Part shown: one piece after another, positions 55,945 to 61,711 of the stretch
Numbering within the stretch: position 1 is the stretch's first letter
Layout of the letters: every line of letters starts with the position of its first letter
IMG/VR virus record: IMGVR_UViG_3300021426_000064
Coordinates: 96,001-160,000 of that record
Reading direction: 5' to 3' (one strand)
Length of the DNA stretch: 64,000 nt
Source: a virus
Lineage: Duplodnaviria; Caudoviricetes
Translations under genes and position numbers: made by a program
The notes under the pieces: generated by a model
What the model was told of the DNA's origin: nothing
The model's database searches: none
Seen by the model: the letters and a program-made list of their open reading frames with translations, nothing else

Positions 55945-56538
55945 ATGGATACCAAAAACTATAAGATTGATGTCAAAACATCGAGAACTGTAGAAGCTTT
56001 GTTTTTGGAATTAAATGTCTACAAAGAAAGACGAAAATTGACTTCTATCACTAAGAAAATAGAGTCTGACTTTGAGGCTGTCTTATTAACGAATGAAAAA
56101 CATCAGTTAAATCGTGGAGTATTATGGGCTACGCCGAAAGAAGCAATGCAGGTGGCCCCGAAAATAATTGAACAGCGGTTGGTTCTTGCGGAGGATTTAA
56201 CAGACCTTTCCATGACATTTTCAAACCTTAGCTCTTTAGAATATGTAGATCTATCAGACTGGGATACTTCAAGAGTTACAAATTTTGATTCGATGTTTAA
56301 CCACTGTGATAACCTGAAGAGAATTGACGGTGTAATTGATTTATCTAGTATTGACAAAGTGTTTATTCCATACAAAAGCAACCCTTTAGGCAATATGTTT
56401 TATAGTTGTAAGGCATTAGAGAGCAAGGTTGTTATAAAAAATCCGCCATCAGATTACCTTGATATAGAAGACGGAAGAATCAAATGGGAAAAATATACCC
56501 AATTATCGTTAGACAAATTTGAATTCATTTTTGAATAA
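55945..56538 (+). CDS. BspA/DUF285-type LRR protein with shared N-terminal 'plug' module
   Basis: DLSDWDTSRVTNFDSMF..C repeat. N-terminus aligns with 56548 and 58427. Confidence 0.75.
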   Translation: MDTKNYKIDVKTSRTVEALFLELNVYKERRKLTSITKKIESDFEAVLLTNEKHQLNRGVLWATPKEAMQVAPKIIEQRLVLAEDLTDLSMTFSNLSSLEYVDLSDWDTSRVTNFDSMFNHCDNLKRIDGVIDLSSIDKVFIPYKSNPLGNMFYSCKALESKVVIKNPPSDYLDIEDGRIKWEKYTQLSLDKFEFIFE

Positions 56539-56547
56539 GGAGAAAGT

Positions 56548-57216
56548 ATGAATACTAAAACTTATAACGTCAATTTAAAAGCTAAGAAAACTGAACTCGG
56601 TGGAGAACTATCCATTAACGTCGTAAAGTCAAGCGACGTTATCAGCAGGCGCAAGTCGTATGATGCCAATATGGCATTAATCATACTTCAGCAACATCAC
56701 TGGATGGACATGATTTACCCCGATGATTACGACACTATGACTAAATTGCGCGACGAATTTATGCTTGATCCATCCATGGATGATCTAGGCACCATGTTCA
56801 GTGGCTGTGTCAGCCTAGAAGAAATTGACACCCATTTGTTTAACACTTCCAATATTAAACGCATGGATGGCATGTTTCAAAACTGCGCCTCTGTAAAAAG
56901 ATTAGATCTGCGTCATTTTGACGTAAGCAAGGTAGAAGATATGACCAGTATGTTTGAAGGATGTTCTGAATTAGAGAGTCTAGATTTTTCAGGCTGGGAC
57001 ACTTCCAAAGTTCAAAACTTTAACCGGCTATTTTTTGATTGCCCCAATCTAAAGGAAATAAAGGGGGTGTTGGATTTATCATCTGCCATATCCAACGCTT
57101 ATTGCTTTGCCGACAATAAGAATAACGTCTTGAAGTTAAAGATAAAGAATGTGCCCAGTGGTTTTAATATCAAAAGGACTGGGCTTAATGAGAACCAACT
57201 GGAAATAGTTTCCTGA
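56548..57216 (+). CDS. BspA/DUF285-type LRR protein with shared N-terminal 'plug' module
   Basis: Three FNTSN/FDVSK/WDTSK...M..MF..C repeats. Confidence 0.8.
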   Translation: MNTKTYNVNLKAKKTELGGELSINVVKSSDVISRRKSYDANMALIILQQHHWMDMIYPDDYDTMTKLRDEFMLDPSMDDLGTMFSGCVSLEEIDTHLFNTSNIKRMDGMFQNCASVKRLDLRHFDVSKVEDMTSMFEGCSELESLDFSGWDTSKVQNFNRLFFDCPNLKEIKGVLDLSSAISNAYCFADNKNNVLKLKIKNVPSGFNIKRTGLNENQLEIVS

Positions 57217-57254
57217 GTTCTACATTCCGATGTAGCTGAACTTTGTATCCACAG

Positions 57255-57347
57255 GTAATATGTCCCATGTAAGGTGGTGCGAGGCGGCAATGTTCTTGCC
57301 GCCAGCGTTAATCCTTACGCGTAAACATCTATACTATATAAGGAGAA
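57255..57347 (+). promoter_or_regulatory. GTAATA promoter motif plus structured 5' leader
   Basis: GTAATA at 57255, nested stem 57269-57318. Paralogous to 60123-60226. Confidence 0.65.
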
Positions 57348-58337
57348 ATGTACATGTCTCTTACAAACCTCTCTCAGATTAAAGGTCTGAAAAATCTTCG
57401 CAGCGATGTAGACTTGCTCTTAAAGTCCTATGATGCTGCAAAAGTAGTTACCCAAATCGCTAAAGCTGAAGGCGAAGGCAACTACAATGTCGAGGAACTG
57501 CTCGAAGCATTGAAGTCCAAACTGGATGCCATCGCTGGCACCGAAGGCGAAGGCCAGTCTCTCGACGCCTTAAAAAAGGCCATTGATGGCCTGAAGAATA
57601 AGGCTATTAAGGCTTACACGGGCAATGCTGAAGAACCCGTAAAAGAATACAAGCTGGCTGAACTGCCTGAAGACGCACTCTTAAAAGGTGAAGAGCTGGA
57701 TATTACGGCTTACCAGAATGCCTTGGACGCGCTGGTAGCTAAACTGGCCGCCAATAAGGAACTTATTAACGCTGTTAAAGAGCTTATCGGCGATAAGAGC
57801 GTACAGACAAGCATCGAAGAAGCAGTAGCTGAAGTTAATGCAGCGCTGGCTCTTAAAGGTGACAAGGCCGTAGTTGAAAAGGCCGATGCTGACCTGAAGA
57901 TTCTGGATACCAAGATTGAAGAGCTGGAAAACAGCACAGTAGTTGAAGTACAGGACGTTATCGAGCTGGGCGAAGTTCAGGTTGATCTGCCACTTTCCGA
58001 TTCTCCCAAAGCTCAGGAAGTGCGCCTCTACGTTAATGGTGCCGTTTATTACGAGAACGATGACTTCACCGTTGACCGCAAGGCTAAGAAGTTGACCTGG
58101 ACCTCCGCTGATTTTGCTTTGACGAGTGCTATCGCCGCCAAAGTTACGGCTAAGTATTACGTCGATGCGGGCCTGGGCTTTGATCCGTCCCTCATCCAGA
58201 TTGACGATTCAAAGATTACTCTAACTCGTGAAGAGCCTGAGAAGTCCTTTAACGTAACCATCCCGGCTGACTGTACGCTGGAAGTAGTTCCGAGCGATCC
58301 TGAAGCTGTTGAAGTAACGGTAACGGAAGTTCAGTAA
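57348..58337 (+). CDS. Virion appendage carrier protein ending in half an Ig-like domain
   Basis: Paralog of 60227 (MSLTNL.QIKG, NYNVEELL, DDFTVDR...TW). Strong SD, probable start ATG 57354. Confidence 0.75.
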   Translation: MYMSLTNLSQIKGLKNLRSDVDLLLKSYDAAKVVTQIAKAEGEGNYNVEELLEALKSKLDAIAGTEGEGQSLDALKKAIDGLKNKAIKAYTGNAEEPVKEYKLAELPEDALLKGEELDITAYQNALDALVAKLAANKELINAVKELIGDKSVQTSIEEAVAEVNAALALKGDKAVVEKADADLKILDTKIEELENSTVVEVQDVIELGEVQVDLPLSDSPKAQEVRLYVNGAVYYENDDFTVDRKAKKLTWTSADFALTSAIAAKVTAKYYVDAGLGFDPSLIQIDDSKITLTREEPEKSFNVTIPADCTLEVVPSDPEAVEVTVTEVQ

Positions 58338-58426
58338 TTTCACCTCAAATGAATTAAATAATAATATCATATAGCGGAGTTAAAATAATAATCGCTTATG
58401 ACTTATAAATAAAAGGATGATTTTAA

Positions 58427-59470
58427 ATGAGTAGAAAACTTAAGGATTATAATGTGTTAGTAAAAGCGCTGGGCAATTTCCCATTGGTTAGCTTAGATGT
58501 TAATGTTCTTAGAAAAGGTGAGAACGTCTTTAAGTTAACTAAATGGATTGAGAGTAAAGGTTTTTTTCCGAAAAAAGGAAAAGCTCTTAACGATTACACC
58601 TGGGACGAAATATCTCAGATTGCTCAGGCTGGCGTAGGGGAAGATTATTTTGATGTCGGAGACTGCAAGGAAATCACTCTCAATGGCAAAATCGGCGATT
58701 ACCTGACACTTTCCAATCAGAAGCTTTGTGTGTTTATCTTGGATTTCAACCATCCTGAAAATGGGGTGGCGGAGAATAATATTATCTTTGGCGGATTTAA
58801 GACGGCGTTATCTGGCGGTAAAGATGTTGCGCTATGTGACTCTAAATATAATACTGCATCCATGGACGGCAGTATATGTTTCAATATGAGCCACAAGACA
58901 ACTGCCACATCAGGCAACGATCAGTATGGATATAATCATGGCGGCTGGAAAGGCTCTGACCTTCGTTATGATATCCTCGGCGCCACCAGCACGGCTCCAA
59001 GCCAGTACAACAAAGACAAAACCACTTCCAATGTTGGCTACGATGCTACGGCTGCTACGTTGACTTCTCCAAAGGCGAATACTTTCTTGGCAGCCCTGCC
59101 CTCAGACCTGAGAAGTGTTTTACGCCTTCGTACACATTATGTAGATAACAAAGGTAATGAATCTAATGTGGATGCTAACGTAACTGCCGTGACAGACGCT
59201 GTATCGCTCTTAGCTGAGCCCGAGATTTTCAGTTCGAGTTCCTATGCAAATCAGTACGAGAAAAATCACCAAACGCGGATGAAGTATTATGCCAACGGCA
59301 ATTCAACAGTGAAATACAATCACAGTAACACTGGCTCCGCTGTCCGTTGGTGGGAGTGTTCTCCTTACTACAACTACTCGACCTGCTTCTGTTTTGTGGA
59401 CTCCAGCGGCTACGCCGACTACAGCTACGCTCGTCGCTCTTGTGCGTTGGCCCCCGCTCTCAAAGTTTAG
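58427..59470 (+). CDS. DGR-target-type receptor-binding protein (C-type-lectin-like C-terminus)
   Basis: LNDYTWDEI, VGD.K, GGWKGSDLR, LL.E.EIF, YYANGN, and terminal WW..SP....FC.V...G.A....A.....AP motif. Confidence 0.85.
   Translation: MSRKLKDYNVLVKALGNFPLVSLDVNVLRKGENVFKLTKWIESKGFFPKKGKALNDYTWDEISQIAQAGVGEDYFDVGDCKEITLNGKIGDYLTLSNQKLCVFILDFNHPENGVAENNIIFGGFKTALSGGKDVALCDSKYNTASMDGSICFNMSHKTTATSGNDQYGYNHGGWKGSDLRYDILGATSTAPSQYNKDKTTSNVGYDATAATLTSPKANTFLAALPSDLRSVLRLRTHYVDNKGNESNVDANVTAVTDAVSLLAEPEIFSSSSYANQYEKNHQTRMKYYANGNSTVKYNHSNTGSAVRWWECSPYYNYSTCFCFVDSSGYADYSYARRSCALAPALKV
59331..59470 (+). other. Putative DGR variable region (VR)
   Basis: 18 of 26 consecutive codons end in C and none in A, as expected for mutagenised AAC/AAT codons. 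Located at the 3' end of the gene. Confidence 0.7.
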
Positions 59471-59544: not shown

Positions 59545-59970
59545 ATGCGGTACATCACCATAAAACGCTACAGACGTGACGGTGTAGGCGGGCACTTCAA
59601 CCTTCCATACGGCACACCCGTAGCAGAACGTGAAGGCGTCCTTTACCACGACAATCGTCCTATATGTGCGGCATGTTCATACTCGTCCCACAAGCACTTT
59701 GCCCACGACGATGATGGACATGGACAAGAACGTGGCAAGTTATCCCACGGCATAATCAAAAAGCTAGGCGGTACTCATTGCCCCGGGGAACCTACTCCAG
59801 AATGGGATGCTATCGAAAATGACGAAATCGCCAATAGCTACCGCAGAAAAGACCATGTAACATCATGGCTGTGGGACGATTCATTTTTCAAAGCACCGAT
59901 AAAAGATCTGCAACATATCGCGGTCAAAATAGGACTTATAAAAGAGGGAGAAAAGGTACAAAATAATTGA
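59545..59970 (+). CDS. Hypothetical phage protein following the DGR-type target
   Basis: AAGGAGG SD, 141 aa. Confidence 0.7.
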   Translation: MRYITIKRYRRDGVGGHFNLPYGTPVAEREGVLYHDNRPICAACSYSSHKHFAHDDDGHGQERGKLSHGIIKKLGGTHCPGEPTPEWDAIENDEIANSYRRKDHVTSWLWDDSFFKAPIKDLQHIAVKIGLIKEGEKVQNN

Positions 59971-60226: not shown

Positions 60227-61711
60227 ATGTCACTCACAAATCTTGCTCAAATTAAAGGTGGTCTTCAGCTTCAGGCTGACGTGCAGGCACTTCTGAAGTC
60301 CTACGATGCTGCCAAGGTTCTGACTAAGGTTGCCAAGGCTGTAGGCGAAGGTGAAGAAGCCGCCAACTATAACGTCGAAGAGCTCCTGACAGAACTCAAA
60401 GCTAAGATTGATGCTATCGCTGGCAACGGCGAGGAAGGCGACGCGGCCTCCCTGACATCTCTAGCAGCTGCTATCGATGCTCTTAAGGACAAGAAACTCA
60501 AGGATATGGTTCGCGTTGAGTTCAGCATCGCTTCTGGCGTAGCTACTCTGCCCGAAAACTTTGATACTCTTGTACCGGCCTGCGACAAAACGAAGGCTCT
60601 GCCGGTTTACACAGCTGACAACGAAGTCGTATTCAACGAGAACGGTGAACAGCTGACCATCGTTCCGGAAACTGGCGTACTGAACGGCGTACCTTCCGAA
60701 ATCGACGCTGAAGCATCCGCTGCCGCTGAAGATGGCAAAGCTGTTTACAAGGCTAAAGCTGATTTCCAGGCCAAGATTTTCCCTGTTGGTGAATGGAAGC
60801 TGGCTGACCTGCCGACCGAAGCTCTGCTCGACAACAACGAAATGCAGCTGGTTGCCTACAAGACGGCTCTTGACAAGCTCGTTATCGACCTGACAAAGGA
60901 CGAAAACCTGATTGCTCAGGTTAAGGAACTGGTAGGCGAGCAGGCTGTACAGACTCAGCTCGAAGAGGCCCTGAAGGCTGTTAACGAAGCAGTAGCTGCT
61001 AAAGCTGAAAAGACGGCAGTAGATGAACTGGCCGGCACGGTAAGCGACATCGATGAGCGCGTAAAGGCCATCGAGGGAACACAGGATGAGGCGGTTTCCG
61101 ATAAGGTTGCCGTTACCGCTCCTGTTACTGAGTTTACTCTGTCCAAAAAGCCTAACGCTAAGCTGGTTGAGGCCGTTATCAACCACCTCGTATACCGCGA
61201 AGGTGATGACTTTACGGTTGACCGCGACGCTCAGAAAGTAACTTGGACGCTGACGGCCGCTAATGATGGCTTCGATATCGATGCTGATCTGACGGACGCT
61301 GTACGGTTCAACTATTTTTTTAAGGTCGCCGGTGGGGTAAATCCTGCACCGGCTCCTGCGAATAAAGGCTGGGAAGTAACCGTAAACGTTCCCAAGAGTG
61401 CAACAACGCTCGACCTTCAGAAGGTTTTGACGGCTGAACAGCTCGCGGATATCACTGACGAAAACGCTGCCGGCCCGGAATCTGATGGCGTAGGCCGTAA
61501 GATTCGTTGCTATGTGAACGGCGTAGAACTCAAATGGGACTACGAAAACACTGGCGATGAAGAAGTAGAGGCTGCTCTCGTAGCTTCCGGCCTAACCAAG
61601 GGTAAGGAATTCGTATTCGGTACTTACGAACTGGATAGCTCGAAGATCCTGAACTTCAGCTGCGGCTGGAGCGAAACCGGCTGCGACGTAAAAATCGTTT
61701 ACCAGCCGTAA
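60227..61711 (+). CDS. Virion appendage carrier protein (paralog of 57348)
   Basis: 494 aa. Shares N-terminal and middle modules with 57348 and has a different C-terminal domain after a PAPAP linker. Confidence 0.75.
   Translation: MSLTNLAQIKGGLQLQADVQALLKSYDAAKVLTKVAKAVGEGEEAANYNVEELLTELKAKIDAIAGNGEEGDAASLTSLAAAIDALKDKKLKDMVRVEFSIASGVATLPENFDTLVPACDKTKALPVYTADNEVVFNENGEQLTIVPETGVLNGVPSEIDAEASAAAEDGKAVYKAKADFQAKIFPVGEWKLADLPTEALLDNNEMQLVAYKTALDKLVIDLTKDENLIAQVKELVGEQAVQTQLEEALKAVNEAVAAKAEKTAVDELAGTVSDIDERVKAIEGTQDEAVSDKVAVTAPVTEFTLSKKPNAKLVEAVINHLVYREGDDFTVDRDAQKVTWTLTAANDGFDIDADLTDAVRFNYFFKVAGGVNPAPAPANKGWEVTVNVPKSATTLDLQKVLTAEQLADITDENAAGPESDGVGRKIRCYVNGVELKWDYENTGDEEVEAALVASGLTKGKEFVFGTYELDSSKILNFSCGWSETGCDVKIVYQP

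Follow-up and report, generated by a model that had tools for sequence, protein, structure and literature searches.

A fiber-like locus of four genes is described here from a 64,000-base window of a virus genome (bases 96001-160000 of the 184,341-base record IMGVR_UViG_3300021426_000064, whose completeness is estimated at 78%). One gene on the + strand (57348..58337, 329 aa) encodes a putative fiber protein, hereafter the carrier, which ends in a beta-rich C-terminal tail of ~52 aa, the socket (58179..58337, +; DPSLIQ...VEVTVTEVQ). The other three, also on the + strand, encode tip proteins that begin with a common module, the plug, and continue into unrelated heads; tip 1 (55945..56538, 197 aa) and tip 2 (56548..57216, 222 aa) are located upstream of the carrier and tip 3 (58427..59470, 347 aa) downstream. 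The module family, the conserved truncated tail, the strict adjacency of carrier and tip genes and the predicted composite fold were all computed in this work. They lead us to favor the view that tail and plug co-fold into a composite immunoglobulin (Ig)-like domain, of which the tail would be the first part, and that through this domain the carrier holds one of three alternative heads at its distal end. On the models presented below, the tips probably attach to the fiber by completing its fold. Fold complementation of this kind had been proposed in an earlier note on this DNA, and it gains in silico support here from a weak two-chain score and from a predicted Ig-like sandwich.

The tip proteins share an N-terminal module

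The N-termini of the three tips are only 25-26% identical in pairwise comparisons, and phmmer among the genome's 837 open reading frames (ORFs) gave E values of 0.2-7 between them, so that, judged on these sequences, the gapless three-way alignment noticed earlier is by itself not above chance. That the tips do share a module, as the earlier note held, was borne out by a family profile. A leave-out profile, for which 44 tips from other contigs were used and the window proteins and their close relatives excluded, matched exactly three ORFs in the 184-kb genome: 55945 (E 1.4e-16, over residues 1-56), 58427 (4.5e-13) and 56548 (8.8e-13). The next best match had an E value of 0.67. In tips 1 and 2 the module occupies residues 1-~55 (55945-56109 and 56548-56712), and in tip 3 residues 1-~45 (58427-58561).

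An exhaustive profile search of 1.84 billion protein representatives returned 34 clusters with E≤1e-3, 14 of these with E≤1e-10. The module is N-terminal in 31 of the 34 and is never fused behind another domain in the credible ones; the three exceptions were judged spurious, being repeat proteins matched over many short stretches. All 32 proteins returned by a word-indexed profile search likewise carry the module at residue 1-5, and the neighbors of carrier homologs in the loci L003, L004, L006, L008 and L009 start with M..K.Y.V.vKAl....l.l.v.k.g....K.E.D. Neither the plug profile nor the tail profile had a significant match among PDB sequences, the best being 2kyw (adhesion exoprotein domain) at E 0.48 and EsaG at E 0.36.

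Several tip genes of relatives contain frameshifts at homopolymers, inside or just after the plug (L003:4537-4543, G7; L003:7093-7097, A5). A further one at L006:5925-5931, the same in L007, falls at an A run fitting the slippery pattern A_AAA_AAT and leaves a plug-only ORF of 40 aa that recurs in two samples. These frameshifts could be sequencing errors, phase variation or programmed frameshifting.

The carrier ends in a conserved tail beside the tip genes

Searches with the carrier gave 24 matches in all. The carrier-type homologs that were aligned, down to 47% identity, stop without exception (13/13) at one position after the ~52-residue tail, whereas paralogs of the 60227 type lack the tail and run on into a different, larger C-terminal domain; both the abrupt ending and the tail-less paralog had been remarked upon earlier. 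Mean pairwise identity along the carrier is 76% in the N-terminal tag, 56-57% in the helical region and beta domain, and 75% in the tail. The socket tail is nearly invariant. Run against the genome, a tail profile found the carrier tail as its sole match, so that this genome has one socket and three plugs.

The separation of the two parts is kept in all relatives, and no fused tail-plug homolog was found among the 1.84 billion representatives; a word-indexed search for longer proteins that contain the tail also returned none, which is weak evidence. Since one stop position recurs in many independent assemblies, an assembly artifact at the stop ending at 58337 is excluded, and the split is a maintained one, as had been suspected, and no lesion. 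The intergenic gap of 89 nt (58338..58426, +) contains its own Shine-Dalgarno sequence on direct reading (AAAGGA, 58412-58417), 9 nt upstream of the ATG at 58427, as the earlier note had it. Carrier and tip 3 are in different reading frames; a separate ribosome-binding site precedes every tip, and the tips do not all share a frame.

The carrier adjoins plug-bearing tips in all nine contexts that were read (the window, L003, L004, L006/L007, L008, L009, L010, L011 and one GCA_024712465.1 contig from NCBI), with variation in both gene order and tip number. L003 has two tips upstream and one downstream, like the window; L004 has three downstream, L006/L007 and L009 have one downstream, and the divergent lineage of P0019 has one tip in L008 and two in L010. 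The linkage holds across carriers that are only 47-52% identical. In L009 (3956-3967) the carrier TAA is separated by only 6 nt from a tip ATG in the same frame, with GGAGG inside the last codons of the carrier, an arrangement suggestive of translational coupling between socket and plug. The P0019 lineage has a gene for a GGDEF-domain protein (PF00990, diguanylate cyclase type; L008:4267-5823, L010:1-1545) immediately ahead of its carrier and tip genes.

Ahead of the tail the carrier consists of an N-terminal tag, a long helical region and a beta domain (57939..58166, +; ~aa 198-273 of the 329-aa ORF; predicted local distance difference test score, pLDDT, 83-97). Database homologs begin at the third codon of the ORF, 57354. 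The tag, MSLTNLxQIKG..., is common to the carrier (57348-57480) and to paralog 60227 (60227-60360), and this conserved segment is probably the virion-attachment end of the carrier. Structural likenesses of the beta domain, all with middling Z scores, are to XD2/XD3 of CBA120 TSP4 (Z 7.6; 64-68 residues, 17-19% identity), to a neck chain of DT57C (Z 8.0) and to a tail-fiber assembly chain of phage Carin-1 (Z 7.8).

Tail and plug are predicted to form one Ig-like sandwich

The co-folding check that had been proposed for the two halves was carried out in two ways. For the two-chain prediction, carrier residues 196-327 and tip 3 residues 1-50 were both entered as alignments. The interaction prediction score from aligned errors (ipSAE) was 0.48, 0.47 and 0.49 in three runs, whereas the best of three controls scored 0.00; 58 of 80 solved complexes and 2 of 110 mismatched pairs attain the mark set for this score. 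Contacts agreed to at least 91% between runs, and partner pLDDT was at least 64. In the two-chain controls the plug had a pLDDT of 39 beside an unrelated chain versus ~65 beside the carrier, and the carrier one of 56-57 beside unrelated partners versus 71-72 with its true partner. When the carrier was modeled alone with AlphaFold2 (AF2) from a 13-row alignment, the beta domain was predicted at pLDDT 83-89 and the tail at 29-73, with no strands or other secondary structure assigned. From the tail modeled alone and the plug beside an unrelated chain, neither half appears self-sufficient.

In L004 the carrier and the next tip share a reading frame, and a read-through of this locus (P0087), with the three intervening stops read as glycine, was used as a loosely tethered chain containing the beta domain, the tail, 29 junk residues and tip residues 1-64. 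It was folded with a checked block alignment (A8) that included three bridging read-through rows. Another block alignment (A7) was dropped because MAFFT had placed the plug strand K-T-Y-N-V-x-L on the tail strand K-S-F-N-V-T-I, so that false contacts were possible, and the read-through of L009, which has a linker of 3 residues, was passed over as a fold query because such a linker would force the geometry. In the AF2 model of P0087 the tail has a pLDDT of 67-87 and strands at 105-113, 117-122 and 128-135; the linker is below 50; and the plug has a pLDDT of 80-87, strands at 169-178, 184-192 and 195-206 and a short helix after them, making six long strands in all. The plug is packed against the tail and not against the beta domain. 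The module thus supplies three predicted strands and not two.

Residues 85-209 of this model, comprising tail and plug but not counting the junk linker, align as one unit to single Ig-like domains in an all-against-representatives structural search. Among the matches are the S-layer protein SbsC (Z 9.9, root-mean-square deviation 2.8, 86 residues), a tail protein of phage SU10 (Z 8.8), filamin repeats (Z 8.2-8.6) and the Ig domain of lambda gpV (Z 7.9). Pilin and chaperone chains are also among the matches (SafA-SafB 2co7_B, Z 8.0; 9fx8_C, Z 7.8). Across the entire model the best Foldseek matches are two-Ig-domain chains. Both predictors, one given free chains and one a loose tether, bring tail and plug together. 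With the tether the outcome is a complete Ig-like sandwich, its first part predicted to come from the carrier and three of its strands from the tip. Judged by one compact two-sheet sandwich of ~90-100 residues, tail and plug are predicted by the AF2 model to belong to the Ig-like class, formed in trans.

The socket strand K-S-F-N-V-T-I (58260-58280) resembles the first strand of the plugs, K-T-Y-N-V-x-L (55960-55980, 56560-56580 and 58445-58465), and MAFFT superposes the two. The resemblance may reflect an old internal duplication, or merely a common amphipathic strand pattern.

Unrelated heads follow the plug and are exchanged at its boundary

Two of the heads are of leucine-rich repeat (LRR) type and one is of lectin type, in accordance with the earlier note. 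The short head of tip 1 belongs to DUF285 (BspA-type LRR; 29.5 bits, Pfam cut-off 25), as does that of tip 2 (72.3 bits, same cut-off; also LRR_5, 29.7 bits). In tip 3 a spacer leads from the plug to a lectin-type head of DUF6273 from ~aa 52 (32.5 bits, Pfam cut-off 23.5). Most plugs carry DUF285/LRR heads; the other types found behind the plug are DUF6273, an 'APELPATTL' BspA-like repeat and an unassigned head of ~500 aa. The plugs of tip 3 and of P0057 are 69% identical over 48 residues and the remainder of the two proteins is unrelated, which shows directly that heads are exchanged at the plug boundary.

The DUF6273 head of tip 3 is 35-61% identical to its relatives. The closest, at 61%, is in an L005 protein, where an intact Big_2 domain precedes the head, and the relatives in L005 and in Faecalibacterium phage FP_Taranis carry an intact Ig domain at the corresponding place. 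The expectation that such lectin heads follow an intact Ig domain therefore held for the DUF6273 relatives; a resemblance of the second half of that domain to the plug had no statistical support (hhalign, P 0.44). Tentaclin (PMC10743442) was considered as a comparator and set aside as irrelevant, since it is built differently, with a C-type lectin domain at its N-terminus. The FP_Taranis relative is annotated as a target of a diversity-generating retroelement (DGR), and heads like that of tip 3 are diversified by DGRs in relatives. An active DGR was not detected, there being no RVT_1 match in the 184-kb record, which at 78% completeness leaves the rest of the phage uncovered; nor does the record, within the same limit, hold a second copy (template repeat) of the 3' end of the tip 3 gene.

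Comparison with known systems

In the chaperone-usher pili (Fim, Pap, Saf, Caf1), donor-strand complementation and exchange let the N-terminal residues of one subunit complete the Ig-like fold of another, giving a very stable non-covalent joint. The predicted joint is similar in that an Ig-like fold incomplete in one polypeptide would be completed by N-terminal residues of another. It differs in that pilins lack one strand and receive one, whereas three strands are donated in our model, and in that pilins polymerize with a periplasmic chaperone and an usher, whereas the joint here would be a terminal cap. No chaperone or usher was matched by Pfam or PHROGs in the ten neighboring ORFs scanned, although no targeted search was made. 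In fibers of the T2/S16 type, the separately encoded adhesin gp38 caps the distal end of gp37 through its N-terminal domain. A separate adhesin at the distal end of a long fiber is common to that arrangement and ours; there, in contrast, each phage has one adhesin and the fold of the attachment domain differs. We know of no report of a split Ig domain in gp38-gp37, and nothing pertinent on phage tail fibers that dock by donor strands came up in the paper library searched.

Phage adhesion devices do offer a precedent for a composite Ig-like domain, although the earlier note knew of no such description. The crystal structure of the baseplate tripod of the Lactococcus phage Tuc2009 shows a sheet in the C-terminal sandwich of BppA that is completed by a hairpin from the BppU C-terminus; BppU residues 296-321 contribute, and the composite BppU-BppA domain resembles a titin Ig domain (PMC4742702). 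There, as predicted here, two separately encoded adhesion proteins are joined by a C-terminal beta element of the carrier. The Tuc2009 hairpin is added to an otherwise formed BppA sandwich, whereas in our case the prediction assigns the larger half, four or five strands, to the carrier and three strands to the tip N-terminus; several alternative tips with a common plug are a further difference.

In branched receptor-binding proteins (Klebsiella phages KP32, K11 and KP34; coliphages K1-5 and G7C; TSP1-4 of CBA120), the primary fiber protein bears an enzymatic head and receives a short peptide of the secondary proteins on its folded T4gp10-like domain (PMC6872550, PMC13352976). These systems and the locus described here have in common a conserved N-terminal docking element before variable, unrelated heads, an arrangement that permits several specificities per virion and head exchange. 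The carrier beta domain resembles the XD domains of TSP4 at Z 7.6, which lies within the range of common arrangements, and the predicted contact of the plug is the tail. Unlike the primary proteins of branched systems, the carrier is head-less, and for its joint the models predict a split domain that co-folds. The principle is thus already known in the form of the composite Ig domain of Tuc2009, donor-strand complementation in pili and shared N-terminal docking elements on exchangeable heads. The differences here lie in the position and size of the split (~52 + ~45 residues, with three strands donated at the tip N-terminus), a head-less carrier and several tips per socket.

Weighing of alternative explanations

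Several results weigh against a composite Ig-like domain. The two-chain ipSAE was rated 'weak support' by the tool, which returned no interface and by whose calibration a pass at ≤0.60 errs more often than not, except where the pairing was likely to begin with. The predicted template modeling score of P0087 is only 0.49, its alignment is unpaired, and its single-chain tether may favor packing. The Z scores of 8-10 are just slightly above the best value of 7-8 that is typical of any model. At the sequence level, Pfam finds no family for the tail, the plug or a typed 78-residue fusion of tail and plug, and for Big_2 (PF02368) in particular none of the three has a match at E≤10. With hhalign the tail is colinear (9-47 against 7-45) with the first half of the intact Big_2 domains of L005 and L002, of the sort that precede DUF6273 heads in L005 and FP_Taranis, but at a P of only 0.003 and a probability of 10.7%; the plug gave nothing (P value above). 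The earlier assignment of the tail as Big_2-like is not upheld by these searches. Finally, the plug could dock on the XD-like beta domain of the carrier, as in the branched receptor-binding proteins.

This last point leads to the chief rival explanation, in which the module is an ordinary docking tag on a folded platform (the XD/T4gp10-like beta domain of the carrier, paralog 60227 or a baseplate protein) and the tail a small element in its own right, which might for instance fold only within the carrier oligomer. The beta domain does resemble TSP4 XD2/XD3 and other phage fiber-attachment chains, KP32, K11 and KP34 are established cases of a conserved N-terminal peptide docking on a T4gp10-like branching domain (PMC6872550, PMC13352976), and the two-chain score is weak. 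We nevertheless consider this explanation rather unlikely, since AF2 sets the plug with the tail and the pair makes one complete sandwich, the tail is unstructured without the plug, the tail-less paralog has its own fused C-terminal domain, and the tail is conserved far above the beta domain (75% vs 56%). The module might instead serve the tip alone, as an oligomerization, chaperone-binding or assembly signal, with its adjacency to the carrier explained by a shared fiber operon only. Its presence on heads of very different size and type would fit, as would the hairpin, third strand and short helix of the model; the gain in module pLDDT beside the carrier, the adjacency in 9/9 contexts despite changing gene order and carriers only 47-52% identical, and the genome's stock of one socket and three plugs speak against it and make it improbable. 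A chance resemblance, or a recent lesion or assembly error in a once-continuous gene, can draw on the non-significant similarity of the three N-termini within the genome and on the homopolymer frameshifts in relatives. It carries next to no weight and is already refuted by the leave-out profile (E 1e-12 to 1e-16), by the single stop position of 13 aligned carrier homologs from independent assemblies and by the missing fused form, and it sits ill with tips that have their own ribosome-binding sites in various frames and gene orders.

Genomic setting of the locus

Almost all genes of the window are on the + strand. They include replication genes (DNA polymerase, helicase, RecJ-like and other exonucleases) and two groups of fiber-like genes, some of them collagen-like, with the present locus in the second group. 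The ORF coordinates of the four locus genes and the paralog agree with those given earlier. Between tip 3 and the carrier paralog (60227-61711, an ORF without the socket tail) is a gene for a 141-aa Cys/His-rich protein of unknown function (59545-59970; phrog_29409, E 1e-27), and ORF 61786 has a weak DUF4183 match on a segment similar to the carrier beta domain. Searches of a phage collection gave no match for the locus at the DNA level or for the carrier protein. Identical or near-identical proteins are encoded on metagenomic contigs of up to ~340 kb, which places the lineage among large uncultured phages.

Proposed mechanism and significance

In the mechanism that we propose, the carrier would be a fiber protein whose last ~52 residues form the first four or five strands of an Ig-like sandwich and cannot fold alone, and the ~45-residue N-terminal module of each tip (55945, 56548 and 58427) would give the three that are missing. 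If made at the same time, carrier and tip would be joined by co-folding of tail and module into a single composite Ig-like domain, which would fasten an LRR head or a DUF6273 lectin-type head at the distal end of the fiber. With a shared plug, one socket could take any tip, and recombination just after the plug would exchange heads. The N-terminal tag shared with paralog 60227 presumably fixes the carrier to the virion, and the paralog would be the fused counterpart with its own head. We infer in this scheme the physical binding, the location on the virion, the oligomeric state of the carrier and the effect on host range or adhesion.

A broader version is possible but doubtful: the split Ig joint would be an obligate co-folding connector, and the carrier, if trimeric, could bear mixed tips (two LRR, one lectin) on one fiber for combinatorial, multi-specific adhesion. 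The connector would then be a widespread, unrecognized assembly rule of large uncultured phages, with heads swapped by recombination at the plug boundary.

If the proposed co-folding of tail and plug is true, it would explain how a large gut or rumen phage displays several unrelated heads from one fiber gene, as well as the small separate head genes and the position of the recombination point, just after residue ~45. It would provide phage biology with a defined, portable connector, and it would set a second, more extreme case beside the single solved composite Ig-like domain of a phage adhesion device.

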